Origin: Candidatus Saccharimonadota bacterium
GTDB taxonomy: Bacteria > Patescibacteriota > Saccharimonadia > Saccharimonadales > Saccharimonadaceae
Length of the DNA stretch: 32,000 nucleotides
NCBI GenBank assembly: GCA_002421785.1
Contig: DIRZ01000003.1
Location: 370,700-402,699 of the forward strand
Direction: 5' to 3'
Shown here: piece by piece, positions 7,749 to 32,000 of the stretch
Layout of the letters: the number at the start of each line of letters is the position of its first letter
Position numbering within the stretch: position 1 is the first letter of the stretch
Program-made: the position numbers and the translations under genes
The notes under the pieces: model-generated
The model's database searches: none
Told to the model about the DNA's origin: nothing
The model's input: only the letters and a program-made list of their open reading frames with translations

Positions 7749-9530
7749 ATGCGCATTTCAGATGACACATTGATAACCTTGCTGACCAGGAACAATATCG
7801 CCTCGGTCGAGCAGTTAAACACTCTCAAAGAAGAGGGTGCTCGTTTGAATCGCTCGTTACAAGAAGTCGTGATCGAGAAACAAGTGATTACCGGCCCCGA
7901 GCTTACAAAGCTCTTTGCTGCATACGCGGACATTCCCTATATCGAACTTGATCCCCGCGACATTCCGCAAGATATCTTAAATAAAATCCCCGAGCGTATC
8001 GCCCGACAATACAACGCGGTCATATTTCAAGTAGACGACGACGGGCTCGTCCACTTAGCAATGGACGACCCTGATGACGTGCAAGCGGTCAGTTTCATCG
8101 AAAAGGAAGTGGGCGAAAACACCCGCATTTACATCGCTTCTCACGATAACATTTTAATGTGTCTTGAAAATTATCGCGGCGATGTGAACGAAGAACTGAA
8201 CGAAGTTATCGACATTCAGCGCGAAGACGATGGTACCGCTCAGCAAGTAACCGAAGCAGAGGTCGCAGAAGATTCGCCAATTGCACAAACCGTCAACCTG
8301 CTCCTCGAATACGCCATCCGCTCACAGGCGTCCGACATACACATCGAGCCACGCGAAAGCTTCGTTCAGATTCGTTACCGCATTGACGGTGTTTTGCGCG
8401 AAGTGAATCAGTTGCCGCGAAACGTTCTCGGAGCCCTCGTGAGCCGTATCAAAATTCTCTCCAACCTAAAGATCGATGAACGGCGCGTCCCTCAAGACGG
8501 TCGATTCAAAATCAAAGTGGCTGGCAAGCAATACGCGCTCCGTGTCAGCACGCTTCCGATTGCTGATGGCGAGAAGGTTGTTATGCGTATTCTTGACGAA
8601 TCAAACCAAGCAATCACTCTTAGCGACCTTGGCTACTGGGGTCATTCGCTGACAGTCATTACCGAAGCAATCGCTGAGCCAAACGGCATGGTGCTCATCA
8701 CTGGTCCAACAGGTAGCGGTAAGTCCACCTCTCTCTTTAGCGTACTCACTATGCTTAATCGACCCGATGTGAATATCTCAACCGTAGAAGACCCAGTCGA
8801 GTATAAAATCCCAGGAGTAAACCAAACCCAAACAAACGTCAAAGCCGGAATGACATTTGCCAACGGTCTTCGAGCACTTCTTCGCCAGGACCCCAACATT
8901 ATCATGGTGGGAGAGATTCGCGACGGCGAGACGGCCAACCTTGGCGTGCAGGCCGCCCTTACTGGGCACCTTGTATTTACGACACTCCACACAAACAACG
9001 CAGCGACCTCTCTGCCGCGCCTGCTCGATATGGGCATTGAGCCGTTCCTGATCGCCAGCACCGTCAAAGCAGTCGTTGGTCAGCGCTTGGTGCGCAGGCT
9101 TTGCATGACGTGCCGCCAACAGTATACGCCCGAAAGACCACAAGTCGAAGAAATGATCAAGCTCTTCAATCTGAGAGAGGGCCAAAAGTTTGCCGATATT
9201 CACGACCTTGAAGTTCAAGCGGCTGAAGAAAAGGTCGGGGGAGATACACCGCTCAGCACTGACGACAAGACAATATTGACAATGTGGAAGGCGAACCCGG
9301 ATGGCTGCGATGAGTGTAATCACACAGGGTACAAAGGTCGCATCGGCATATACGAAGTACTCGGCACCAGCATTCCTGTTCAAAAAATGATTGTATCGAA
9401 CGCAACCAGCAATCAAATTCAAGACCAAGCGATTGCCGAAGGCATGCTGACGATGCAAACCGACGGGCTCATTAAATCACTTCGCGGCAACACAACACTC
9501 GAAGAAGTCTTGAGGGTGACCAGGGAATAA
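7749..9530 (+). CDS. pilB: type IV pilus assembly ATPase PilB (GspE family)
   Basis: N-terminal T2SSE_N-like domain, Walker A GPTGSGKST, Walker B IIMVGEIRD, His box TGHLVFTTLHTN, tetracysteine CMTC...CDEC. Confidence 0.9.
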   Translation: MRISDDTLITLLTRNNIASVEQLNTLKEEGARLNRSLQEVVIEKQVITGPELTKLFAAYADIPYIELDPRDIPQDILNKIPERIARQYNAVIFQVDDDGLVHLAMDDPDDVQAVSFIEKEVGENTRIYIASHDNILMCLENYRGDVNEELNEVIDIQREDDGTAQQVTEAEVAEDSPIAQTVNLLLEYAIRSQASDIHIEPRESFVQIRYRIDGVLREVNQLPRNVLGALVSRIKILSNLKIDERRVPQDGRFKIKVAGKQYALRVSTLPIADGEKVVMRILDESNQAITLSDLGYWGHSLTVITEAIAEPNGMVLITGPTGSGKSTSLFSVLTMLNRPDVNISTVEDPVEYKIPGVNQTQTNVKAGMTFANGLRALLRQDPNIIMVGEIRDGETANLGVQAALTGHLVFTTLHTNNAATSLPRLLDMGIEPFLIASTVKAVVGQRLVRRLCMTCRQQYTPERPQVEEMIKLFNLREGQKFADIHDLEVQAAEEKVGGDTPLSTDDKTILTMWKANPDGCDECNHTGYKGRIGIYEVLGTSIPVQKMIVSNATSNQIQDQAIAEGMLTMQTDGLIKSLRGNTTLEEVLRVTRE

Positions 9531-9532
9531 CA

Positions 9533-10762
9533 ATGCCAAGCTATCTGTATACCGCCACAAACTCGCAAGGTAAAATTGTCACTGGCTCCTTTGAGGCGCT
9601 TGATCGTACAGCAGCCGTTGTCGCCCTATCGAAGCAGAACCTCTCACCCATTAGCCTCAAAGAGGGGACGGCGAAGAAAACTTCGTTTGGTTTTCTCGAT
9701 TTTCTCGGTAGTAACCGAGTAAAGAACGATGACCTCGTCATGTTTACCCGCCAGCTGAGCGCAATGGTGAGTGCGGGCGTTCCGCTCCTGCGAGCCCTTT
9801 CGTCGCAGCACGACCACACCGACAATGCAGCCTTGAAAACCGTGACTTCTGGTATCGTCAAAGATGTCGAAGGTGGTGCGACTCTCGCGGATTCACTCGC
9901 AAAATACCCTAACACCTTTAACGATGTCTACGTCAACATGGTACGAGCGGGTGAAGCCGCCGGTATCCTTGATGAGATTTTAAAACGAATCGCCATCCAA
10001 CAAGAAAAAAATGCCAGCATGCGTAAGAAGATTAAGAGTGCAATGGCCTATCCTATCGTTCTGATGGTGATTACCGTTCTTGCGTTCTTCGGGCTCATGA
10101 TCTTCGTCATTCCTCAAATCGGTAAGATTCTCAAAGATCTTGGCGGTCCCGAGGCTAAGCTTCCCGCCCTCACCCAGGCCATGCTCGATATTAGCGATTT
10201 TCTTATCCGCAATGGACTCTTCCTTATCCCTGTCGCGATTGGTGGCGTAGTGCTCCTGATGCGCTACCTCAAAACTCCCAGGGGCAGGTCGCTTTTTCAT
10301 CACTTCGTACTAAAAGTTCCTGCTATCAATCCCATCATACGTAAAGTCGCCGTTGCGCGATTCGCTCGCACATTTTCAGCGCTGATGGGCGCAGGCGTTG
10401 CCGTTCTTGAAGCGCTTAATGTCACAGCTCGGGCCGTTGGCAATGTTGTCTACGAACAAGCACTCGTCGAAGCAGCCGAGCAAGTGAAGAATGGAAAGAC
10501 GCTTTCCTCTGTTATCGAAAAAAGTGACCTGTTCCCTCCTATCGTCGCACAGATGCTCGCCGTCGGTGAAGAAACCGGCCAAACCGATACCATCTTAGTG
10601 AAAGTGGCGGATTTTTACGAAGAAGAAGTCGATGTCGCAATTGATGGCATCAGCTCAATTATCGAGCCAGTGATGATCTTGATCATGGGATCAATGGTGG
10701 GTCTTATTGCTGCAAGTGTCATGGGACCAATTGCTGGTCTTGCACAAAGCATAAAAGGCTAG
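9533..10762 (+). CDS. pilC: type IV pilus platform protein PilC (GspF family)
   Basis: Two GspF-type repeats (FTRQLSAMVSAGVPLLRAL and FARTFSALMGAGVAVLEAL) with three TM segments. AGGGA lies upstream, 2 nt after the pilB stop. Confidence 0.9.
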   Translation: MPSYLYTATNSQGKIVTGSFEALDRTAAVVALSKQNLSPISLKEGTAKKTSFGFLDFLGSNRVKNDDLVMFTRQLSAMVSAGVPLLRALSSQHDHTDNAALKTVTSGIVKDVEGGATLADSLAKYPNTFNDVYVNMVRAGEAAGILDEILKRIAIQQEKNASMRKKIKSAMAYPIVLMVITVLAFFGLMIFVIPQIGKILKDLGGPEAKLPALTQAMLDISDFLIRNGLFLIPVAIGGVVLLMRYLKTPRGRSLFHHFVLKVPAINPIIRKVAVARFARTFSALMGAGVAVLEALNVTARAVGNVVYEQALVEAAEQVKNGKTLSSVIEKSDLFPPIVAQMLAVGEETGQTDTILVKVADFYEEEVDVAIDGISSIIEPVMILIMGSMVGLIAASVMGPIAGLAQSIKG

Positions 10763-10781
10763 GGAAAAACCATTCCGGTCG

Positions 10782-10790
10782 TGCTATACT
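10782..10790 (+). promoter_or_regulatory. extended -10 promoter (TGcTATACT) upstream of pilM
   Basis: TGCTATACT lies in the 59-nt pilC-pilM spacer, 31 nt upstream of ATG 10822. Confidence 0.4.
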
Positions 10791-10821
10791 ATACAGAGAG
10801 AAATTCTATTAGTGGGCATGA

Positions 10822-11880
10822 ATGACAAAGCTATTCTATAAAGACAAACCCCTGATTGGACTCGATATCAGCCAAACTGGTATCAAAGTCATGTCTATCG
10901 ACCCGAAAAAGTGGTTAGTTCTTGGCTATGGCTCGCTCGATCTCGACCCCTCTAAGGTGCAAGGCTCGCTAGATAATCCTGAAGATACCTACCTGACAGA
11001 CAGTATTCGCACACTCCTGACCGAAAATATTGTCGGGACGCTCAATTCAGACCATGTCGTCATCGGCCTGCCGACGGGTCGCACCTTTTCGCGTACCTTT
11101 ACCCTACCCTCATCACAAGAGAAAAACGTAAAAAGTGCCGTTGAAGTTGAGGTTGATCAATACATACCCATTCCACTCAACGCTCTGTACGTTGACCATG
11201 AAATCATCGAGCGTTCTAAAGATACCCTGACCGTGGTTATGTCGGCCGTTCCTTCTGCGCTTGTTGACCTATGCACGAAAGCTGTCAGCGCCACCGGCCT
11301 CGTCCCTATCGTGGCAGAGCCCAGCATTAATGCCGTTGCGCGCGTCATTGAAGCCACGGAAGAAGGACACCTGTCGACACTTATCGTTGATATTGGACCC
11401 GCCAGCACCGACATTGCTGTGCTCGATAAGGGTGCAATTCGCGTTACCGGTGGTATTGGGCTTGGTGGCAACACCTTCACACTAGATATTGCCAAGAAAC
11501 TTAACATCGCACTGGAAAATGCCCATCAGCTTAAAGTCCTTAACGGGCTAAGCGCCGGGCCGCGACAGGCAAAAATCTCAGCCGCTCTTAAGCCGAGTTT
11601 ACAGCGCATCATTACCGAAGTTCGCAAAGTGATTCGCTACTACAACGAACGGCTCAACGATGACCGCAAAATTGAACAGGTCTTGATCGTCGGTGGCGGA
11701 GCTAATGTCCCCGGTATCGGAGAATACTTCACGAACGAGCTTGTTATGCCCGCTCGCGTTGCGAGCCCGTGGCAAAAGCTCGACTTCGGGTCACTCCAAG
11801 AGCCAAATAAGCAATTCCGTCCGCGATACATCACTGTTGCAGGCCTTGCGAGCGTAAAGAGTGAGGCGATCTGGAAATGA
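10822..11880 (+). CDS. pilM: type IV pilus assembly protein PilM (actin-like ATPase fold)
   Basis: N-terminal IGLDISQTGIKV phosphate-1-like motif and LIVGGGANVPGI. Size and position immediately upstream of pilN fit. ATGA overlap with pilN. Confidence 0.85.
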   Translation: MTKLFYKDKPLIGLDISQTGIKVMSIDPKKWLVLGYGSLDLDPSKVQGSLDNPEDTYLTDSIRTLLTENIVGTLNSDHVVIGLPTGRTFSRTFTLPSSQEKNVKSAVEVEVDQYIPIPLNALYVDHEIIERSKDTLTVVMSAVPSALVDLCTKAVSATGLVPIVAEPSINAVARVIEATEEGHLSTLIVDIGPASTDIAVLDKGAIRVTGGIGLGGNTFTLDIAKKLNIALENAHQLKVLNGLSAGPRQAKISAALKPSLQRIITEVRKVIRYYNERLNDDRKIEQVLIVGGGANVPGIGEYFTNELVMPARVASPWQKLDFGSLQEPNKQFRPRYITVAGLASVKSEAIWK

Positions 11881-12437
11881 TAAACCTTCTTGCACCCGAT
11901 GATCGTCGGCAACTTGCCGCAGCGCGCACAAATACCCTGTTGCGGAGATATGTGTTTCTACTGGGGCTCGTTGTTGCTGTGCTCTTGATCGAAATTGGGG
12001 GAGTCTACGTCTTCCTGAGCGTCGATAAGGCCCGAAACGAAGCAGCGATTATTGAGAGCGAATCAAAAACGACAGAGTTTGCACAAATCCGACAGGATGC
12101 ATCGTCGTTCCGATCTAACCTCGCCACGGCAAAATACATTCTCGACAAGCAGGTCGACTACACTTCACTTATCGTTGGCGTTGCCAATGCTCTGCCAAAT
12201 GATGCCGTTATCGACTCGCTGTCTCTGAATCCCGAAACGTTCGGCACACCTGCAACGCTCACTATCCACACTAGCTCCTATGGACTTGCTATCGATGTGA
12301 AGACTCGTTTGCAGCAGTCACCCCTTTTCTCTGATGTAAGCTTCCAGTCTGTCGCTAAAGAGGACGATTCTACAAGCCCTCGTCCGTTCACTGCGGTATA
12401 TAATGTCACCTTTGCAAAGGACGCACTTAAGCCATGA
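11877..12437 (+). CDS. pilN: PilN-like pilus alignment protein
   Basis: N-terminal MINLLAP (INLLP motif), a single TM (VFLLGLVVAVLLIEIGGVYVFL) and a periplasmic-type domain. Confidence 0.7.
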   Translation: MINLLAPDDRRQLAAARTNTLLRRYVFLLGLVVAVLLIEIGGVYVFLSVDKARNEAAIIESESKTTEFAQIRQDASSFRSNLATAKYILDKQVDYTSLIVGVANALPNDAVIDSLSLNPETFGTPATLTIHTSSYGLAIDVKTRLQQSPLFSDVSFQSVAKEDDSTSPRPFTAVYNVTFAKDALKP

Positions 12438-13081
12438 AGACGTCACGACTTACCCCGTCTAAACTCCGTATAATACTAAGTATCTGTATGCTCCTGCTTA
12501 TTGGAGCGGGCGTTGGGCTATTCACAGTCGGTTATAAAGTAATCGCCGATTACTCAGCTGCAGCAAGAACAACCGCAGCCCAGGCCCAGGCAAGCAATAC
12601 CACTCTCCAGGATCTCAAAAAAACCGAAGCCCAGCTTGAAGCAAACGCCGAGACCGTCGCAAGGGCATCGCAAATCGTGGCCGAAAGCAAAAGCTATGTC
12701 TACCAAGACCAAATTATCCGCGACATCAATAATTTTGCAACCAACTCCGGTATTACCGTGACAAACATTACTTTCGCGGATGCCGTCGTGACACCGACGT
12801 CTGTCAGTACCCCTGCAGCAGGAACCACACCACCAATTGCAACAGGTACCCCAGCCGCAGGCGCCGCGACTGCAGCTCCAGCGGGAGTAAAATCAATGAC
12901 CGCAACCGTCACCTTAAAGAACCCCGTCAACTTCACCTCCATGCTTAAGTTCATTCGCTCTATCGAAGGTGGTCTATTCAAAATGCGCATTTCACAAGTC
13001 ACCTTGTCGCGCGCATCCGATTCCAGCAATAAAGATGAAGTAACCAGTGACGCACTCACTATAGAGGTATACGTACGATAA
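12434..13081 (+). CDS. pilO: PilO-like pilus alignment protein with internal P/A/T-rich insert
   Basis: Single N-terminal TM, a coiled-coil segment (LQDLKKTEAQLEANAE), then a small alpha/beta-type domain. Assignment rests on position after pilN with an ATGA overlap, plus topology. Confidence 0.5.
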   Translation: MKTSRLTPSKLRIILSICMLLLIGAGVGLFTVGYKVIADYSAAARTTAAQAQASNTTLQDLKKTEAQLEANAETVARASQIVAESKSYVYQDQIIRDINNFATNSGITVTNITFADAVVTPTSVSTPAAGTTPPIATGTPAAGAATAAPAGVKSMTATVTLKNPVNFTSMLKFIRSIEGGLFKMRISQVTLSRASDSSNKDEVTSDALTIEVYVR

Positions 13082-22592: not shown

Positions 22593-22860
22593 CTATGCTT
22601 TGCGGCGTACTATGCGCGTAGCCAGCTCAGAAATTTCGCGTCGCCATTCCCACACCGCATAGGCGCTGGCCGCGGTCAGGATTCCCGCAATCGCCCACCA
22701 CATTCCCGCTGACTGTGCCGTCTGCTTCATTGGCTCAACGGGATACGCGGCCAAAGGCACATCGCTCAGCGGTATTTTTCGACATCGATTAGTGCTCGGG
22801 TTGCGCTCATAGCCTTCATCGCATGGCAGTAACTCTGCAACCGCACTCGCAATACTGCGG
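22593..22860 (-). other. out-of-frame 3' continuation of the LTD gene (fourth repeat + TM anchor)
   Basis: Shifting one nt at the CCC run (minus strand, 22861..22859) reads RSIASAVAELLPCDEGYERNPSTNRCRKIPLSDVPLAAYPVEPMKQTAQSAGMWWAIAGILTAASAYAVWEWRREISELATRIVRRKA, then a stop at 22595..22593. Confidence 0.65.
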
Positions 22861-24195
22861 GCAACGATTTGTCAACGGATTGCGCTCCTGGCCCTCTCCG
22901 CAGGGAACCAGCGATGCGCTCACCGATGAAGGAGCCACGACAGATCGACAACGGTTCGTTGCAGGATTACGCGACTGACCTTCGGGACAACTCGCGAGCT
23001 CATTTACCGCTTCTTCGATAGCACGACAGCGGTTCGTTTCGGGGCTACGGTACTTGCCCGCCGGGCACTCCACTATCCCAGAACTATCGGCTGGCACGCT
23101 CACGATAACAGGAAATTCATTTGCACCTAGCGGGTTAGGCAGCGACGTCCACACCCACTCGCCTGCCGCGTTTAGTGCATAACCAAATTGCTGCTTTGTA
23201 GTACCGGCACTTTCATAAGAGCGCAGAGTATTTTGATACACTTTCATACCCCAAGCGTCTTCAAGCCATACGTAGCCACCACTATTTGTTAGGCTTAATC
23301 CCGCACCGTCATCAGTTAGGTGAACCGTTAAATATGCTTGTGGGGCAAGCGAGCCGTAGGTATCAAGCATAATAGTATTCGCGGTTGTTCGGTTCGTTGA
23401 TGAGCTATCCGTACGGAGCGCATACGCAGTCAAATCAATCGTCTCGCTCGTCCCGTTATGGAGCTTTACGTAGTCATGACAGTAAATGTCAGTATCGAAC
23501 GGATCGCAATTTTTTGCATAGGGATAGATTTCGACGACCTCCAAGCCTGGAGCGTCGGGAACTACATACAGACCATGGTCATAGAGCTGCGTTGCTGGCG
23601 CCGGTGCGAAGTTCGTTAGCGTCGACGAGTAGCCATCAGTAATCGGCACACGCCTCATCGGTTCGTCATACGCGCCACTCGGACTCTTCAAAACATATTC
23701 ATTTGTACTCATCGTCTGGGACGCAGGGACTGTTGTGAGCGAATACAGCTTGTCGTTAGGTTTCATTCCCGACCAGGTTGCCATCTCAAAAGAAGCATTG
23801 CTGACACCACGCCCAGCGTCGACGACCACATGCGAACCCGGTGTGATGTACCCAGGAACTCCGCCGCCGCGCTGCGCAATTACCATCGTTACGACGCCAC
23901 TTGTGATTAACTTTTTATCAGCGCCCAATGTTCCAAACGTACCCCGTATCGTCCAGCCGTCAAGAAGAATCGGCGAATCGCCCCTGTTATACAGCTCGAC
24001 GAGCTGAATATCGCGACCAGCATCATCCCACTGATACGCCGAGATTTCGAGCGCCGAGGAATCAAGCCAATACGTCGTAGGTGCGGGTTCGGCAACAACA
24101 GTCGTCGCATACATTCTGGGCGTAGGCATATACGCCATCACTAGGATCGTACATAACGTCATCAAAAATAATCGTCGTCTCGGCGTTGCGCTCAC
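22816..24195 (-). CDS. secreted lamin-tail-domain (LTD) protein with C-terminal CxxGxxRNPxTNRCR repeats (frame ends prematurely)
   Basis: Two LTD-like segments (IQLVELYNRGDSPILLDGWTI and LEVVEIYPY...YVKLHNGTSETIDLTAYAL). Three CP(A/E)G..R.P.TNRCR repeats. Preferred start is GTG 24195 (GAGGGG 6 nt upstream), giving the signal-peptide-like SATPRRRLFLMTLCTILVMAYMPTPRMYA. The track start is ATG 24267. Confidence 0.7.
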   Translation of the reverse strand: MSATPRRRLFLMTLCTILVMAYMPTPRMYATTVVAEPAPTTYWLDSSALEISAYQWDDAGRDIQLVELYNRGDSPILLDGWTIRGTFGTLGADKKLITSGVVTMVIAQRGGGVPGYITPGSHVVVDAGRGVSNASFEMATWSGMKPNDKLYSLTTVPASQTMSTNEYVLKSPSGAYDEPMRRVPITDGYSSTLTNFAPAPATQLYDHGLYVVPDAPGLEVVEIYPYAKNCDPFDTDIYCHDYVKLHNGTSETIDLTAYALRTDSSSTNRTTANTIMLDTYGSLAPQAYLTVHLTDDGAGLSLTNSGGYVWLEDAWGMKVYQNTLRSYESAGTTKQQFGYALNAAGEWVWTSLPNPLGANEFPVIVSVPADSSGIVECPAGKYRSPETNRCRAIEEAVNELASCPEGQSRNPATNRCRSVVAPSSVSASLVPCGEGQERNPLTNRCPQYCECGCRVTAMR

Positions 24196-24301
24196 ATAAA
24201 TCCCCTCATGTATTGGTTGCTGCACTAGGTATACAGTGATGCGTGGTACCACGTCAAACATGAGCATGACAAAAACGTCAATTTTACATCAACAGTAGGA
24301 A

Positions 24302-25088: not shown

Positions 25089-26543
25089 TTACTCCACTAT
25101 AGATGCCTCATACAGTCGGTATCGTGTGCGCCACTTCACGTACCAGCACGCCGCCGCTATGAGCCCGTACCATACCACTGCACCCCACCACGGGAATACC
25201 ACCTCACTTTGTGCCCACGGCACGCTTGCGCACCATTCGACCACAGCCACCATACTGCGAAGGACGAGTTCGGCCGGCCAACCTATTATCGGCGCAGCTG
25301 CTGGTAGCACGTAGCTTCCCAGCCCTGCGATAAACGTAAGGAGCATAGCCAGTGGAATAAATGGCAAGATGATAAGGTTACTCAAAATAGCAATATTACT
25401 AAATTGCCCAAAGGCGACCAGAATAATAGGCGCAGTTGCAAGCTGCGCCGAAATAGTTTCGCCAAGTATCTGCGGGACGAGTCGAGGTTTTTCATTCCCA
25501 TAAAAGTACGCCTGAAGAAGCGGCGCAACAATCATCACACCAGCAAATGCCGCGAAACTTAGCTCCCATCCTAGGTTTCCCCATGCATAACTGGGGTTTA
25601 CAAGCACCGTCGCTGCAGCGACCAATGCGAGCAGTGTTACAGGGTGAAATTTACGGCCATAATACCAAGCAAGCATACTAAGACTCGCTACCAGCCCCGC
25701 ACGAACCATACTCGGGCTCGCGCCTGTCATCGCAATAAACCCAACAATCAACACTCCGCCAGATAACGTGGCTAAATATTTTGAAACACGGGCAAAGGCA
25801 CGCCGCGCCAAACGTACAAGAATCGTTAAATTATAACCGCTCGCCACCACGATGTGCGTCAGCCCTGCAACAGTTAATGCCTCGACAAGATGGGGCGGAA
25901 GGGCGCTTTTCTGGCCAAGTAAATAGCCAATGCCTAGGCTTGCCGCTGGCTCCTCAATCGCTTTCCTCACGTGCTCCGCAAAATCATCGCGTACCATGAG
26001 CGCCACATCGCCGGGCTGCTCTCGCTCCACTTTTACGAGCGTCGCGCCGGTCATGGAGGCAGTAAAACTTCCGAACCCTGGCTGCAGCCGTCCATCAAGC
26101 GTCATGACATCACTCCGTCTCAGTACTGTTTGTCCCGCAACTACCGTCACCCACAGGTCGCCCGGCAGACTACGTGCATCAAGTGTCACGCGAGCCAGTT
26201 TTGCGACGGCCTGGCCTCTGTTATTCGTTTCAACATCATCGGCGATATGACCTCTTATTTGTACATGTTTCCCATAGAGTGCGTCGTACACCGCTACCGA
26301 TTCTTGAGTGGCGCTCCCCCGCCACATTCCCAGGCAAACCCCACCTATGAGTGCCGCCGCGAGCATAAAACGCCTGGGGCGCATCGCCCATAGAAGCGTC
26401 AACAATCCTGCCGTGAATAACCACGTCAACCCACCCGTGTGCGGCACCCACCGCGCACTCCACACTCCTATTACCACACCTAGGCACGCGGCCGTAAAAT
26501 GCCACGTCGGGTGAATCTTTGCCAGCAGCCAAGAACGTCTCAT
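25089..26543 (-). CDS. comEC: ComEC/Rec2-type DNA internalisation channel (OB-fold N-domain + competence TM domain, no beta-lactamase-like domain)
   Basis: N-terminal TM helices, an OB-like soluble insert (VQIRGHIADDVETNNRGQAVAKLARVTLD), then a polytopic competence-domain region (GLTHIVVASGYNLTIL, GASPSMVRAGL). The protein is 484 aa and ends right after the TM domain. Confidence 0.8.
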   Translation of the reverse strand: MRRSWLLAKIHPTWHFTAACLGVVIGVWSARWVPHTGGLTWLFTAGLLTLLWAMRPRRFMLAAALIGGVCLGMWRGSATQESVAVYDALYGKHVQIRGHIADDVETNNRGQAVAKLARVTLDARSLPGDLWVTVVAGQTVLRRSDVMTLDGRLQPGFGSFTASMTGATLVKVEREQPGDVALMVRDDFAEHVRKAIEEPAASLGIGYLLGQKSALPPHLVEALTVAGLTHIVVASGYNLTILVRLARRAFARVSKYLATLSGGVLIVGFIAMTGASPSMVRAGLVASLSMLAWYYGRKFHPVTLLALVAAATVLVNPSYAWGNLGWELSFAAFAGVMIVAPLLQAYFYGNEKPRLVPQILGETISAQLATAPIILVAFGQFSNIAILSNLIILPFIPLAMLLTFIAGLGSYVLPAAAPIIGWPAELVLRSMVAVVEWCASVPWAQSEVVFPWWGAVVWYGLIAAACWYVKWRTRYRLYEASIVE

Positions 26544-27090: not shown

Positions 27091-27666
27091 ATGCATAAAA
27101 GAATAAGCGGCTTCACGATTGTTGAACTTTTGATTGTTATAGTCGTGATTGGCATCTTGGCCGCTATCTCCGTCGTCGTATTTAACGGGATTACCAGCCG
27201 AGCAATGAAATCAGCCACCGATAGTGATATAAGGAATATCGAAAAGAAACTACAGGTGCGGACACTTGAGACCGGTGGAGGCTTTAGGCGTGCGGCAGAA
27301 ATGATGACTAGCGGCGTATTGGCATCGTTTGGCAATAAGGTCCAGTATGACGTCACGAGTGACCCGGGCTCGCTATATAGCGCGCAAATGCAATCGACAA
27401 ATACGCCCAGGGGGAGCTACCTTTTTGATAACTATAGCTGGTCATATTCCTCCGACATCAACGTATATTACAGTAATATAGATCTTTACTACTGGGATTA
27501 CGGAGATGGCTACTGGCGGTGTAGCCTCTATAATTATTCTATTGGGAGAGATCCTGTGCTGGTTATTTCAAAGCCCGACAGGTGTGACTCTAATTTCTTT
27601 GACCGGGCAACGAATCAGCAGCCATGCCGAGCAGCCAGGGTCGAAGAATGTATTTGGATTTATTGA
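27091..27666 (+). CDS. pilA: type IV (IVa-like) major pilin candidate
   Basis: Prepilin signal MHKRISG|FTIVELLIVIVVIGILAAISVVVFNGITSRA with Glu+5. This is the classic PilA N-terminal helix. The C-terminal region has four Cys (two potential disulfides). Confidence 0.85.
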   Translation: MHKRISGFTIVELLIVIVVIGILAAISVVVFNGITSRAMKSATDSDIRNIEKKLQVRTLETGGGFRRAAEMMTSGVLASFGNKVQYDVTSDPGSLYSAQMQSTNTPRGSYLFDNYSWSYSSDINVYYSNIDLYYWDYGDGYWRCSLYNYSIGRDPVLVISKPDRCDSNFFDRATNQQPCRAARVEECIWIY

Positions 27667-27680
27667 GAAACAGTGACCAG

Positions 27681-28163
27681 TTACTTTTTATGCTCATCCC
27701 GAGCATGGGGCTTTTTATAAAAGAGAACTTCGCCCAGTGCCATGACAATGGCAACGGTAATGATGATTTTGTCATATGCAAGCAGTTGCGTGACAAAGAC
27801 TTGACTACCGTCATCCAATACGACGGCGTTCACGAACGCGCCGTACGTCAACATAACAGCTAGTACAGCAAACACAAGGCTACTCACGATACCATGGTGG
27901 CGTTGTGCCACCCTGTGCGATCGCGCCATCACTAGCAGCGCCGGCAGTAGCGTCAACGCAATTGCCACAAGGCTACTGAGCGGCGGCCGAATCACAATTA
28001 CGCCGGTGCTCGCAATAAGGGGAGTCAGGCTATCAGTCCACATTTTTGCAAGGACCGCACCCGCCGTGAGTGCCAGCGCTGGAACTGCCATACTGCGGCG
28101 GCTCGCCCAAGCGATAACAAAAAACGCGATGAGGTATGCTGCGAGAAGCACAAGGTAGGTCAT
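27681..28163 (-). CDS. hypothetical polytopic membrane protein
   Basis: 160-aa ORF with 4-5 hydrophobic helices. No recognisable family. TGgTATACT lies 6 nt upstream of the ATG. Confidence 0.5.
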   Translation of the reverse strand: MTYLVLLAAYLIAFFVIAWASRRSMAVPALALTAGAVLAKMWTDSLTPLIASTGVIVIRPPLSSLVAIALTLLPALLVMARSHRVAQRHHGIVSSLVFAVLAVMLTYGAFVNAVVLDDGSQVFVTQLLAYDKIIITVAIVMALGEVLFYKKPHARDEHKK

Positions 28164-28196: not shown

Positions 28197-29108
28197 TTAC
28201 GCGCCGACTTTGTCTTTTTTGTGACCACGCTTCGCGTTCTGCTCGATGTACTCGATGATAGGTGTCGCAACGTCACGACCGGTCACTTTTTCGATGCCAA
28301 ATCCAGGGCTGGCGTTGACTTCAAGGATTAGTGGTCCACGCTCACTGCGCATCATGTCGACACCAGCGATATTAAGTCCCATAGCGCGCGCAGCTTTAAT
28401 CGCCATTTTGCGCTCTTCTTCAGTTAGCTTGATTGTCGTACCTTCGCCACCTTTATGCAGATTGCTTCGGAAGTCGTCGTCGAGACTCTGGCGTTTCATG
28501 CTGGCAACAACGCGGCCACCAACAACGAATGCGCGGATGTCTGTTCCGGCAGATTCCTTCACGAATTCCTGCAGCAATACGTTCGTGCCGTCATCGTTCG
28601 TGAGGTAAAATGCCTGCAGCACCGACTTTGCAGCCTTCTTGCTTTCTGCCAATACCACACCGTTGCCGTGAGTACCACGAGCGAGCTTGATGATAACGGG
28701 CGTACCGCCAAGCTTTTCCAGCAAGTCATCGATATCAGTGGAGTTACGACTAAAGACAGTTTTAGGAATACCCACGCCCGCTTTCGCGAGGAGCTGCATG
28801 CTTCGGAGTTTGTCACGGCTACGGTTAATCGCGAGCGAGCTTGAAAGTGTATATACACCTTGCATTTCCAGCTGGCGCACAATTGCCGTGCCGTATTTGG
28901 TCATATAGCTGGCAATACGGGGAATAATCGCATCATACTTTGCCAAGTCTTCACCACGGTAGCTCACCGTTGGGTTGTTCTTTTCAATCGAAGCATAGCA
29001 TTCGCGATACTTGATGACTTTGACGTCATGGCCACGGGCTGCCGCGACTTCTTTTAGTCGCTTGGTCGAGTAGTTACCCGTCCCGTTACTTAGGATTGCA
29101 ATTTTCAT
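28197..29108 (-). CDS. rimK: RimK-family ATP-grasp alpha-L-glutamate ligase
   Basis: Collinear by eye with E. coli RimK: MKIAILS, IPRI, RDKLRSMQLLA, VIIKLARGTHGNGVVLAE, DIRAFVVGGRVVA, DDFRSNLHKGG, AGVDMMRSERGPLILEVNASPG. Confidence 0.9.
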   Translation of the reverse strand: MKIAILSNGTGNYSTKRLKEVAAARGHDVKVIKYRECYASIEKNNPTVSYRGEDLAKYDAIIPRIASYMTKYGTAIVRQLEMQGVYTLSSSLAINRSRDKLRSMQLLAKAGVGIPKTVFSRNSTDIDDLLEKLGGTPVIIKLARGTHGNGVVLAESKKAAKSVLQAFYLTNDDGTNVLLQEFVKESAGTDIRAFVVGGRVVASMKRQSLDDDFRSNLHKGGEGTTIKLTEEERKMAIKAARAMGLNIAGVDMMRSERGPLILEVNASPGFGIEKVTGRDVATPIIEYIEQNAKRGHKKDKVGA

Positions 29109-30472
29109 TGGGAGGCTCCTTCTCGCGTTAAATACTTACTCAGTGCTTGCTGCTTGGCTTTGGCGTCGATACCACCAAGCATTTCGGGATTATAATTAAC
29201 TTCAATAATATACCAGATACCGGTGTTCGTGTCCTGTATCAAATCAACACCCGCAATGTTCCGTCCCATCGTGAGCGCCGCTTTAAGCGCTAGACTTATC
29301 ATTTCTGCGTTGGCGCTTTCCACAGGAATAAGCGTTGCGTTTGTTGAGCCATAAGGTTTATTGAGGTGTCGTTTCAAGGCATTTTTGTGGCCGCTAGTGG
29401 TTCGATGCACTACCTGCGCAATCTCATCGCCAAAGCACAGCACACGGTAAAATCCGTCATTGGGAATAAATTTCTGAACCAAAATTGTTTGAATATGCTC
29501 CAAGCGCTTTACGGCATTGGCAAATTCTACGGCGTTGCTCACGACATAGTTATTTTTGCCACGATCACTCGCAGGATCTTTCAGCACAATTTCTGGACCA
29601 AACTTGCTCGCGAGCTGCTCATAGCTGACAGAACTAAACCCATCCATGTTCAGACACGTAGGCGGCACAAGTACGCCACCGATGGCGAGCATAAACATCT
29701 CGCTAAGCTTGGTACTCGAAAGTGCATTCCCTACTTCGTAATCAATGAACCGCACATGGCGATACTGCAGGTACTTTGCAATTGCAACTGCATGGTCAGG
29801 GTAACGGCGATACGCCTTAAAGTACACAAGCGGGTGAGCTGCGATGTCCTCGCCACTAGGTAGCAAGATACGCGGCTTGCCTTCTACGGTAATTTCGTAG
29901 GTGAGATCTTGGTAATGGCATAGCTCAATCGTCGCCCCATCGCTACTATTCATGTCTTTTACTAAATTCGTTGTAGCTTCGTCGTTACGCGAGGTCAGCA
30001 GAATAACCGAGTTCTGGCTAGGGATGACGGGAGTATTGACGTTATGAAGTGATACGTCGACCAAAAAACGATTTCGCAAAAAGCGCTTGCCAATGAGTAC
30101 TGGGAAACGATTATTGGCACGGTTTGCCAGCGTAAACGATGCTCGGTATTTTTTGCCCGCAATGACCAACGCCAGTTTTACGCGGTATCGAAGCTCATCA
30201 TCACCGAAGGAATTTTTGATTTTCGCCAGACGAAAACTACGCGTGGTAAATACTTTCCCGGTGTAGCAGGCTGAACCTGGCCCGAACAAGACGAAAGACA
30301 GTTCGCCGTCCTGTTCGTTTACCTCTGTCGCCCATACACTCGACCCATCAGCGCCAGTGTCCACCTTTACCGGAACGGGCATATCACTGTTCTCGGGGAA
30401 TACAGCAAACTCGGTCGTTCCGATGACGCCGTAGGTCGCTTGGTTCTTATCTGACGATATGACCGTTTTCAT
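29105..30472 (-). CDS. fusion protein: retropepsin-like (RimB / 'ATP-dependent Zn protease' family) N-domain + divergent RimK-like ATP-grasp domain
   Basis: N-terminal region: IGTTEFAVFPENSDMPVPVKVDTGADGSSVWA ... RFPVLIGKRFLRNRFLVDVS (DTGA aspartyl motif). C-terminal region: ILVQKFIP, YRVLCFGDEI, AGVDLIQDTNTGIWYIIEVNYNPE. Its stop overlaps the rimK start (ATGA). Confidence 0.75.
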   Translation of the reverse strand: MKTVISSDKNQATYGVIGTTEFAVFPENSDMPVPVKVDTGADGSSVWATEVNEQDGELSFVLFGPGSACYTGKVFTTRSFRLAKIKNSFGDDELRYRVKLALVIAGKKYRASFTLANRANNRFPVLIGKRFLRNRFLVDVSLHNVNTPVIPSQNSVILLTSRNDEATTNLVKDMNSSDGATIELCHYQDLTYEITVEGKPRILLPSGEDIAAHPLVYFKAYRRYPDHAVAIAKYLQYRHVRFIDYEVGNALSSTKLSEMFMLAIGGVLVPPTCLNMDGFSSVSYEQLASKFGPEIVLKDPASDRGKNNYVVSNAVEFANAVKRLEHIQTILVQKFIPNDGFYRVLCFGDEIAQVVHRTTSGHKNALKRHLNKPYGSTNATLIPVESANAEMISLALKAALTMGRNIAGVDLIQDTNTGIWYIIEVNYNPEMLGGIDAKAKQQALSKYLTREGASQ

Positions 30473-30479
30473 TCTTTAT

Positions 30480-30508
30480 ATTATAGCAAATCATTACCAT
30501 TTTGTCAA
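30480..30508 (-). promoter_or_regulatory. consensus sigma70 promoter directly abutting the fusion-gene start (leaderless transcript predicted)
   Basis: On the minus strand: TTGACA (30508..30503), 17-nt spacer, TATAAT (30485..30480), 7 nt, then ATG 30472. Confidence 0.7.
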
Positions 30509-30519
30509 TATGTCCCACC

Positions 30520-31974
30520 TCAGGCAGCAACCGCTTGTTGTTTAGCAATTATCCGCTTAGCAAAGTAGAGCTCCTGGGGGTTAGTATGGTCAATATTGCC
30601 AATATGACTATCGTCCATCGCTTCGCTCAACCTATCGTCGGCAATTGCCTGCCGATAATACGCAGCATCCTTCATTATCCCTTCGTAATACACCTTGAGT
30701 TTGCTATAAATAACACCCGGCATCGCCCAGTTTGTGCCACGAAACGCGTTGTCATCGTGGACGGTCGCTTCCTTTTTTGCGCGTGCTTCAACTGCTTCGG
30801 TAATAAACCCATCTTCTGCATACTTAACGGCGAGTAGGCGCCACATCATTTCATAGGTTTGCCGGCCGTCCTTGGGCTGGCCATCCGCACCAAGCGCTAG
30901 TCCTGCAACGATATACCGGTCGCGTGCGCGATTAATTGATGGATTTTCCATCGTGCCAGCCTCCGCACACTCGTATAGTACCCCATCGCCCTCCTCAACA
31001 TCCGCGCTTTTCGCTGTACCGTACTTTAACAGCCGCACACCCGTGGCTTCACCTTTGACGCTTCGGTCAGCATGAACACCACGCTCATGCAGGTAGAGCC
31101 GACGTAATTCTGCGGCGTTGCGACGGGTTGTAGCGGGCAGGTAAATTCTCTTTTTTGCGACATGCGTAGACACAATGCTGATTTCATGCGAGACTTCAAA
31201 TTTCCACTTGCCCCCATCAAAACCGTCAGCATTGATGGCGCGGTTCATTATGTCTGCACACTGCGTTGCGTCGTAATACACATCATCAGGCGTATCGGGG
31301 AATTCCTCTAGTTCTTTGCCAAATCTGCGATGAAGTTCTTTCTGGATAGCAATGAGCTCACTGTTAGTCAGCAGCTCGGCCTCTTCGCCTTGAAATTCGT
31401 GCATATCAAAATAGCGGAGCAGCTGTTGCTGGATATTACGCGTACGTTCGTCTGCCGGTATAAAATTCGCGACACGCCGCGATTCTGTTGCCATCATCGC
31501 ACCAAATACCGCCTCGTCAATCTCGCCATAAATCTCATGATTGAGCTGCATAAATTCTTGACGAGCGGTCTGAACTGCTTGGGAATTCCCCGCTTCACGA
31601 AGTCGCTTTGCAGCCTCAACCAACATCATTTTTTTTAGTCGCATCTCATGACCACCTGCATAGAATTCATATTCTTCATCAGATATCACCCCAGACCCTT
31701 TATTTGCCTCGAGTTCGAGAATCGCCTCGTAGGTATCGCGCTTTCTTTCTGCAAATGTCGTTTTGCCCTCGACTGTATCGTAAAGTCGATCGAGCTTAGG
31801 GTACAAATAATCAGGCTCGTACGCCGAGCCATGGATAAAAGCTCTTTGGCTCTCAGCACGCCTGGCGGTGGAATCCTGGAAATACGGATAGTCCGTGAAG
31901 CCACTTTTCACATCGACATATGCTTGGATTTCTGGTGCTGATTTTTGTGTTTGCATAATGCTTACGCCTAGCAT
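30520..31974 (-). CDS. MATCAP/DUF1704-like gluzincin metallocarboxypeptidase candidate with long N-terminal extension
   Basis: RRNAAELRRLYLHERGVHADRSVKG (HExxxH at aa 296-301), followed about 25 aa later by VEEGDGVLYE. This echoes the HEIGTH ... QEGLA arrangement of DUF1704. Assignment is by motif pattern only. An alternative start is ATG 31956. Confidence 0.5.
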   Translation of the reverse strand: MLGVSIMQTQKSAPEIQAYVDVKSGFTDYPYFQDSTARRAESQRAFIHGSAYEPDYLYPKLDRLYDTVEGKTTFAERKRDTYEAILELEANKGSGVISDEEYEFYAGGHEMRLKKMMLVEAAKRLREAGNSQAVQTARQEFMQLNHEIYGEIDEAVFGAMMATESRRVANFIPADERTRNIQQQLLRYFDMHEFQGEEAELLTNSELIAIQKELHRRFGKELEEFPDTPDDVYYDATQCADIMNRAINADGFDGGKWKFEVSHEISIVSTHVAKKRIYLPATTRRNAAELRRLYLHERGVHADRSVKGEATGVRLLKYGTAKSADVEEGDGVLYECAEAGTMENPSINRARDRYIVAGLALGADGQPKDGRQTYEMMWRLLAVKYAEDGFITEAVEARAKKEATVHDDNAFRGTNWAMPGVIYSKLKVYYEGIMKDAAYYRQAIADDRLSEAMDDSHIGNIDHTNPQELYFAKRIIAKQQAVAA

Positions 31975-32000
31975 ATCATAATTTACGACACGCGGCGAGT

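Follow-up and report, generated by a model that had tools for sequence, protein, structure and literature searches.

The retropepsin-like peptidase RimB and the ATP-grasp ligase RimK of Pseudomonas belong to the RimABK system, which polyglutamylates ribosomal protein bS6 (PMC11957791, PMC7343187, PMC4741518). RimB is an endopeptidase that strips polyglutamate from RpsF (about five glutamates are needed), and it stimulates RimK to synthesise free poly-alpha-L-glutamate (PMC11957791); it also binds and regulates RimK (PMC11957791, PMC12239564). Among accessions that bear rim genes, 12% carry a hybrid, rimBK, and 0.9% carry rimBK together with an extra rimK. The RimBK hybrid of Desulfotalea psychrophila is active as a protease, and no glutamylation of Pseudomonas RpsF by it was detected (PMC11957791). 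Here, we describe a related cassette in a 32,000-nucleotide stretch of a Candidatus Saccharimonadota genome (contig DIRZ01000003.1, positions 370,700 to 402,699; hereafter the window). It encodes a canonical RimK, a fusion of a retropepsin-like domain with a divergent ATP-grasp domain that we call GRASP2, and a MATCAP-family peptidase. We read the locus, with some confidence, as a Saccharibacterial RimB/RimK peptide-tail editing module that has been enlarged by two accessory enzymes and thus comprises two ligases and two peptidases. A literature search found no paper mentioning RimK in Saccharibacteria.

The cassette resembles RimABK and RimBK in that a retropepsin-like peptidase stands beside a RimK ATP-grasp ligase, both apparently cytoplasmic. 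With RimBK it also shares the placement of the protease domain N-terminal to a RimK-like ligase within one polypeptide, as well as the arrangement of a hybrid plus an extra rimK. Unlike in RimBK, the fused ligase of the window is not RimK proper, being 22% identical to the adjacent RimK, below the cut-off of the rimK_fam profile and in a clade of its own. In contrast to RimABK, the cassette has neither RimA nor a cyclic di-GMP component, includes an added MATCAP-family metallopeptidase and belongs to a Saccharibacterium with a reduced genome. A further relative is RloABC of Pseudomonas aeruginosa, of which RloA is secreted by means of a signal peptide and RloB joins an inactive transglutaminase to seven transmembrane helices (PMC12239564). 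Both loci combine, in one operon, a retropepsin-like peptidase from a shared Pfam family with a non-RimK ATP-grasp; the window, however, has no signal peptide and no RloB, fuses the peptidase to the ligase and adds a canonical RimK.

The third comparison is eukaryotic. The ATP-grasp ligases TTL and TTLL are opposed by MATCAP/TMCP (KIAA0895L/KIAA0895) and by the CCP carboxypeptidases; the MATCAP/TMCP enzymes, which carry HExxxH and EEG motifs, remove C-terminal Tyr and Glu, deglutamylate and act on protein tails (PMC10499314). The tubulin tail cycle thus sets ATP-grasp ligases, which extend a protein C-terminus by Tyr or Glu, against a PF08014 metallocarboxypeptidase with HExxxH and EEG, as the cassette would. 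It differs in that no tubulin is involved in the case of the cassette, in that the ligases are of the RimK and not the TTL lineage, and in that the Pfam match of the bacterial peptidase is limited to the catalytic core, with no structural match to MATCAP by Foldseek. In Proteobacteria, DUF1704 proteins are said to be associated with RimK-like ligases, reportedly so in work of Iyer and colleagues from 2009 and in NCBI and TIGRFAM family descriptions. The window differs from that pairing of a QEGLA-type protein (TIGR02421) with an alpha-L-glutamate ligase-like protein (TIGR02291), as its peptidase lies outside TIGR02421 and its ligases represent other types. In the searchable literature we found no experiments on bacterial MATCAP, DUF1704 or QEGLA proteins.

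The initial annotation had proposed three consecutive minus-strand genes, and all three open reading frames are present: 30520..31974 (484 amino acids), 29105..30472 (455 amino acids) and 28197..29108 (303 amino acids). The features of the locus are as follows.

30520..31974, minus strand: predicted zinc metallocarboxypeptidase of the MATCAP/DUF1704 family (PF08014), recognised from the open reading frame, Pfam, its motifs, an AlphaFold2 (AF2) model and a profile-to-PDB match
30480..30508, minus strand: sigma-70-type promoter-like site, TTGACA-17-TATAAT with a TG extension, 12 of 12 consensus positions
30035..30442, minus strand: retropepsin-like (RimB-like) domain at the N-terminus of the fusion protein, about residues 11-146, recognised by PF05618 and D38-T39-G40-A41
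29108..30007, minus strand: GRASP2, divergent ATP-grasp domain of the RimK family at the C-terminus of the fusion protein, residues 156-455, recognised by PF08443 and conserved residues
29105..29108, minus strand: ATGA overlap between the TGA stop of the fusion gene and the ATG start of rimK, seen in the sequence
28197..29108, minus strand: canonical RimK (alpha-L-glutamate ligase of the bS6-modification type), recognised by NF007764 and by its Rimk_N and RimK domains
27681..28163, minus strand: small multi-pass membrane protein of 160 amino acids, an open reading frame 33 base pairs (bp) 3' of rimK

The domain identities given to these genes from the sequence alone were borne out by profile hidden Markov model (HMM) searches. 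RimK passes the NCBIfam model NF007764 (30S ribosomal protein S6--L-glutamate ligase) with 348.7 bits against a cut-off of 331, over residues 1-296 of 303. It scores 264.7 bits with rimK_fam, 122 bits with PF18030 (Rimk_N) and 200.7 bits with PF08443, and its domains are full length. The ATGA overlap through which rimK follows the fusion gene, as the initial annotation had noted, is, judging from its sequence, a case of translational coupling.

The retropepsin-like half of the fusion protein matches PF05618 with 53.8 bits (gathering score 27) over residues 18-146. It stays under the cut-off of 200 bits of the NCBIfam RimB model (NF052261; 43.1 bits, E = 3.4e-11) and scores about the same with RloA3 (43.7 bits, E = 2.2e-11), likewise below the equivalog cut-off. 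By these scores the domain is a relative of both RimB and RloA and belongs to neither equivalog. The putative catalytic motif D38-T39-G40-A41 is invariant in 45 homologues of the fusion protein that share 35-54% identity, and a profile of the fusion family matches, with its N-terminal domain, the solved RloA structures 9G59 (E = 4.8e-10) and 9G58 as well as 2PMA.

The ATP-grasp half matches PF08443 with 31.1 bits (residues 291-431) and reaches 57.4 bits with rimK_fam, under the cut-off of 143.4. GRASP2 is nevertheless full length, pre-ATP-grasp N-domain included, and its 22% identity to the adjacent RimK extends over 281 amino acids, aligned along the whole of RimK. The closest solved structures to this half are those of RimK (5ZCT, 5ZK6, 4IWX and 7QYR), followed by ArgX/LysX and Ddl; the fusion family profile matches RimK in the PDB at E = 7e-17. 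In our set of related loci GRASP2 forms a clade apart from RimK, with 54 open reading frames in 52 loci. K298, Q333, R343, R404, D410 and N426 are invariant across the 45 fusion homologues and E424 is conserved in at least 90% of them; K298, R343, D410, N426 and E424 are ATP- or Mg-binding residues. Since these binding residues are invariant or nearly so over 45 sequences, we argue that catalysis has been retained and infer that GRASP2 is a catalytically competent second ligase of the RimK/LysX lineage. The AF2 model of the fusion protein (predicted local distance difference test score, pLDDT, 91.6) shows two well-folded domains, an all-beta N-terminal domain followed by a complete ATP-grasp.

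The MATCAP-like protein matches PF08014 with 47.4 bits (gathering score 27; E = 1.7e-12), limited to profile positions 90-220 of 365, and the same Pfam family is matched by 51 of 53 members of its own family. In 36 MATCAP-like homologues, H290-E291-x3-H295 and E322-G323 are invariant and E321 is at least 90% conserved. Even over 53 sequences with identities down to 19%, the HExxxH residues H290, E291 and H295 do not vary, and each of E321, E322 and G323 is kept in at least 90%. The pattern agrees with that described for human TMCP1/MATCAP (PMC10499314), in which HExxxH is followed by an EEG motif that bears the third metal ligand. A confident AF2 model (pLDDT 94.1, predicted template modelling score 0.92) leads from a three-stranded sheet to an active-site helix and on to a helix bearing the EEG motif. 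While a narrow profile of the MATCAP-like family found no match in the PDB, a profile broadened by distant members matches human MATCAP (7Z5G and 7Z5H at E = 4.9e-10, 7Z6S at E = 3.3e-8). MATCAP is the sole PDB family matched by the broadened profile, and the alignment spans HExxxH, EEG, RGxTD and KDxxYxxG. This establishes, at the level of sequence profiles, that the protein is homologous to the MATCAP catalytic core, a claim that does not extend to the whole fold. The parallel drawn in the initial annotation to eukaryotic ATP-grasp ligases and MATCAP is therefore real at the level of homology. The catalytic residues of all four domains are kept, as far as alignments tell, which supports its reading of the cassette as two writers and two potential erasers.

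The family to which the MATCAP-like protein belongs is large, an exhaustive search returning 1,974 clusters (at 50% identity) at E <= 1e-3. A helical region of about 200 amino acids at the N-terminus is specific to the bacterial family and lies outside the Pfam match. A mostly helical fold together with this bacterial-specific region may defeat a 3Di-based search, which calls for caution in structure-only screening. The QEGLA-motif model TIGR02421 gives 40.8 bits, its cut-off being 338.65. No signal-peptide-like N-terminus was seen in the sequences of either the fusion protein or the MATCAP-like protein, which points to a probable location in the cytoplasm, as for RimB, and sets them apart from RloA, which is secreted. 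In public gene calls and in all homologues, the MATCAP-like gene begins with the second ATG, at 31956 (478 amino acids), and not at 31974, so that the ATG at 31956 is likely the true start. A copy of this protein with 100% identity is encoded on a metagenomic contig of 812,921 bp.

Named homologues come nearly all from Candidatus Saccharibacteria/Saccharimonadales, and a tblastn search of annotated plasmids with the MATCAP-like protein gave no match, so no annotated context outside Saccharibacteria was obtained. Among GTDB species representatives, a scan turned up at least 562 relatives; 80 of these loci (L001-L080) were analysed. Of 83 retropepsin-like genes, 81 are linked to RimK in one of two ways: four form a fusion with a canonical RimK, and 77 have rimK next on the same strand, with a gap of at most 60 bp in 75 of the 77 and an overlap in 25. 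True RimB-RimK fusions in other Saccharibacteria occur at L048, L053, L054 and L057. The retropepsin-like and RimK pair is thus a near-universal core, with the second ligase and the MATCAP-like gene as accessories. The co-occurrence that the initial annotation would have expected holds for this pair, with coupling in many lineages, but not for the three genes as a unit, as the MATCAP-like gene was found by profile search in only 18 of 80 loci (about 22%).

The second ligase is variable: in 43 loci it forms a fusion with the protease, as in our cassette, and elsewhere it is stand-alone, in tandem or absent. At least three clades occupy its slot, namely the GRASP2 type, a type like the ATP-grasp of cyanophycin synthetase, and a type of 456-469 amino acids. 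To the second of these belong stand-alone ATP-grasps of about 320 amino acids beside the MATCAP-like gene (L029:7488-8444, L050:9021-9995, L069:9003-10007, L074:9024-9998 and L088:7399-8415), which give partial matches of 180-220 bits to the ATP-grasp (G) domain of cyanophycin synthetase. This variety suggests that ligases of differing specificity can fill the slot beside the MATCAP-like gene. Two tandem GRASP2-type ligase genes lie at L061:9977-11989, and at L025:2709-3683 an extra stand-alone GRASP2 precedes rimK in addition to the fusion; from these two cases we conclude that the slot can be duplicated.

The distribution of the MATCAP-like gene follows that of the second ligase. Of 53 loci with a second ATP-grasp, 17 have the gene, as against 1 of the 27 without (Fisher p = 0.004). 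In many lineages its end overlaps or directly adjoins the ligase or protease gene that follows, start and stop codons overlapping in six loci, and its pairing with a ligase has outlasted rearrangements and exchanges of one ligase type for another. Viewed from the side of MATCAP-like homologues, an ATP-grasp gene adjoins in five of eight contexts, and one of these (L087) has neither RimB nor RimK. Across genomes, the MATCAP-like gene hence seems to be partnered primarily with the second ligase and not with RimK. MATCAP-like genes away from rim genes tend to lie among translation genes, at L085:6001-7359 (between rpsL-rpsG and fusA), L087:4685-6187 (between trmD and khpA) and L089:6001-7368 (straight after gatCAB). 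These surroundings, three cases in all, hint at a translation-related substrate.

The reading that we favour, a RimB/RimK-type editing module with two accessory enzymes, may be put into mechanistic terms as follows. RimK would be the main writer, adding alpha-linked glutamates to a peptide C-terminus at the expense of ATP, and its acceptor would by homology be ribosomal protein bS6. The edited tail is probably an oligo-glutamate on bS6. The retropepsin-like domain would act as an endo-eraser of the RimB type, cleaving inside the oligo-glutamate. Retropepsins act as homodimers, and fusion to an oligomerising ATP-grasp could hold two protease domains together and beside a ligase. GRASP2, whose nearest solved relatives (RimK, LysX and ArgX) ligate amino acids to protein C-termini, would be a second ligase with a specificity unlike that of RimK, either for another amino acid or for another stage of the reaction, for instance initiation or capping. 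The MATCAP-family enzyme would serve as an exo-eraser that takes off one C-terminal residue at a time, trimming what the endopeptidase leaves behind or removing the residue added by GRASP2. What the sequences show directly is the domain identities, the conserved catalytic residues, the gene order, the coupling and the co-occurrence; the substrate, the amino acids added, this division of labour and the notion of one substrate common to all four activities are inferred.

Several observations weigh against this interpretation. Searches with phmmer, using bS6 sequences of E. coli and B. subtilis as queries, found no bS6 homologue at E < 10 among open reading frames of at least 70 amino acids in the window and in the about 1.4 megabases of related loci (L001-L080). 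The fused ligase, moreover, need not act on bS6, because the D. psychrophila RimBK left Pseudomonas RpsF unglutamylated. A Foldseek search of the PDB with the MATCAP-like model yielded nothing at E <= 1e-3 and no MATCAP among the 50 hits listed, only weak echoes of M32 carboxypeptidases with TM scores of about 0.3; the structural comparison to MATCAP that the initial annotation called for thus gave a confident model but not the expected match. The MATCAP-like gene is missing from about 78% of related loci, and three of the eight contexts seen from its side are orphans with no ligase nearby. The core module can thus do without the gene, whose product may act on other substrates. A perfect TTGACA-17-TATAAT site lies in the 47 bp that separate the MATCAP-like gene from the fusion gene and makes separate expression possible. 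Finally, all loci come from one phylum with a conserved DnaJ...ComEC synteny, so that the co-occurrence counts are not phylogenetically independent.

That promoter-like site deserves a closer look. Over the whole region, promoter-like sites number 6, compared with 5.9 in shuffled sequences, i.e. there is no excess; a promoter function in the gap is proposed because the site agrees with the consensus throughout and lies just before the fusion gene. No terminator-like site was predicted on the minus strand in the 47-bp gap before the fusion gene. The fusion gene and rimK may thus have a strong promoter of their own besides read-through from the MATCAP-like gene.

Such a promoter is one of the points in favour of a simpler view, namely that the MATCAP-like gene is a mere syntenic neighbour. 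It would then encode a carboxypeptidase of general use, or one with some other dedicated task, that has a promoter and substrates of its own, and its place between dnaJ and the rim genes would be due to chance. The gene is missing from most rim loci, orphan copies lie within the str operon, following gatCAB and next to a trehalase gene, and adjacency can be inherited where the DnaJ...ComEC synteny is conserved. What makes us consider this view quite improbable is that the presence of the gene tracks that of the second ligase (17/53 vs 1/27), that it shares overlapping start and stop codons with an adjacent ligase or protease gene in six loci, that it stays beside a ligase through rearrangements and ligase-type swaps, and that it pairs with an ATP-grasp even where RimB and RimK are missing (L087). 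We give still less credence, and indeed very little, to the idea that the fused ATP-grasp is a regulatory or scaffold module (a nucleotide-sensing dimerisation platform or a partner in a hetero-oligomer with RimK), which would leave one ligase only. The published RimBK hybrid is protease-active with no RpsF glutamylation detected, GRASP2 scores well under the RimK family cut-off, and RimB is known to bind and regulate RimK, all of which would suit a scaffold. Yet K298, R343, D410 and N426 are invariant and E424 at least 90% conserved over 45 sequences at 35-54% identity, and GRASP2 also occurs stand-alone and in tandem copies (L061, L082).

A more serious challenge concerns the product. The enzymes might make and break free peptides or polymers, poly-alpha-glutamate or other short polymers, that store amino acids or nitrogen, act as an osmolyte or form part of the envelope, and the two peptidases would then mobilise the polymer, one internally and one from the end. 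RimK does make free poly-alpha-L-glutamate, a reaction that RimB stimulates (PMC11957791). The extra ligase beside the MATCAP-like gene in several loci is like the ATP-grasp of the polymer-making cyanophycin synthetase, and the ligase slot differs between lineages, as would be expected for different small products. In addition, no candidate substrate with an acidic tail is encoded nearby: only 2 of 3,620 open reading frames have an acidic C-terminal tail, neither of them conserved, and we rejected a nearby acidic-tailed substrate on these grounds. On the other side, RimK reaches the equivalog score of a bS6 ligase, the nearest solved relatives of GRASP2 work on protein C-termini, and the characterised MATCAP-family enzymes work on protein tails; none of these points is decisive. 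We regard a free polymer as unlikely, though as deserving real weight. About as doubtful, or slightly more so, is a bolder version of the tail-editing interpretation, in which the MATCAP-like peptidase and the variable second ATP-grasp would form a self-contained pair that adds and removes a specific non-glutamate residue at the C-terminus of a ribosomal or translation-associated protein, atop polyglutamylation by RimK and RimB.

We return to the surroundings of the cassette. Homologues of the 160-amino-acid membrane protein encoded 3' of rimK occur in the same place in at least 17 related loci, and the protein, which matched no Pfam, NCBIfam or PADLOC family, may be part of the operon. In some lineages, a DUF192 gene lies between rimK and an unannotated open reading frame of 162-163 amino acids that resembles the 160-amino-acid protein in size. 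Just past position 32000 of the window, on the strand of the cassette and between dnaJ and the MATCAP-like gene, a strongly hydrophobic polytopic membrane protein of 1055 amino acids is encoded (L081:6756-9923), for which no Pfam match and no acidic tail were found. Relatives examined do not have this gene; there, dnaJ lies directly 5' of the MATCAP-like gene.

The window as a whole is ordinary core chromosome, with genes for type IV pili, RecA/RecX, RuvABC, PBP1, YebC and ComEC. Near the cassette lie a type IV pilus cluster (PilB, PilC, PilM and PilN-like; 7749..13081, plus strand), a protein with a prepilin-type N-methylation motif (27091..27666, plus strand) and ComEC (25089..26543, minus strand), which fit the pilus and competence machinery expected in Saccharibacteria. 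A 483-amino-acid protein with lamin-tail (LTD) domains, encoded at 22816..24267 on the minus strand, ends in three tandem Cys-framed repeats, CPAGKYRSPETNRCR / CPEGQSRNPATNRCR / CGEGQERNPLTNRC. We rejected a mobile island, the GC content of the window being even and the neighbours being core housekeeping genes. An anti-phage defence role was likewise rejected, as the four proteins, the 160-amino-acid membrane protein included, had no PADLOC match.

Taken together, the core of the locus is a known system, and its protease-ligase fusion is a divergent form of the published hybrid (PMC11957791). The statement in the initial annotation that no characterised system has this gene set accordingly does not apply to the RimB/RimK core and its hybrids, but it does to the additions: the recurrent joining of a MATCAP-family peptidase and a second ligase appears to be unreported. 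The steady genomic partnership seen here between bacterial MATCAP-family proteins and ATP-grasp ligases gives this family a testable function, the removal of ligase-added C-terminal residues, and ties an eraser of the eukaryotic tubulin code to a bacterial ligase/peptidase system. As RimB and RimK are kept in at least 562 species-level genomes despite genome sizes of about 0.8 megabases, tail editing or poly-glutamate metabolism likely matters for translation control or amino-acid economy in Saccharibacteria. Should the MATCAP-like peptidase and the second ligase indeed act as a pair on a residue of their own, a minimal bacterium would possess a two-letter 'tail code', a prokaryotic counterpart, and possibly a forerunner, of the tyrosination/detyrosination and glutamylation cycle of tubulin.

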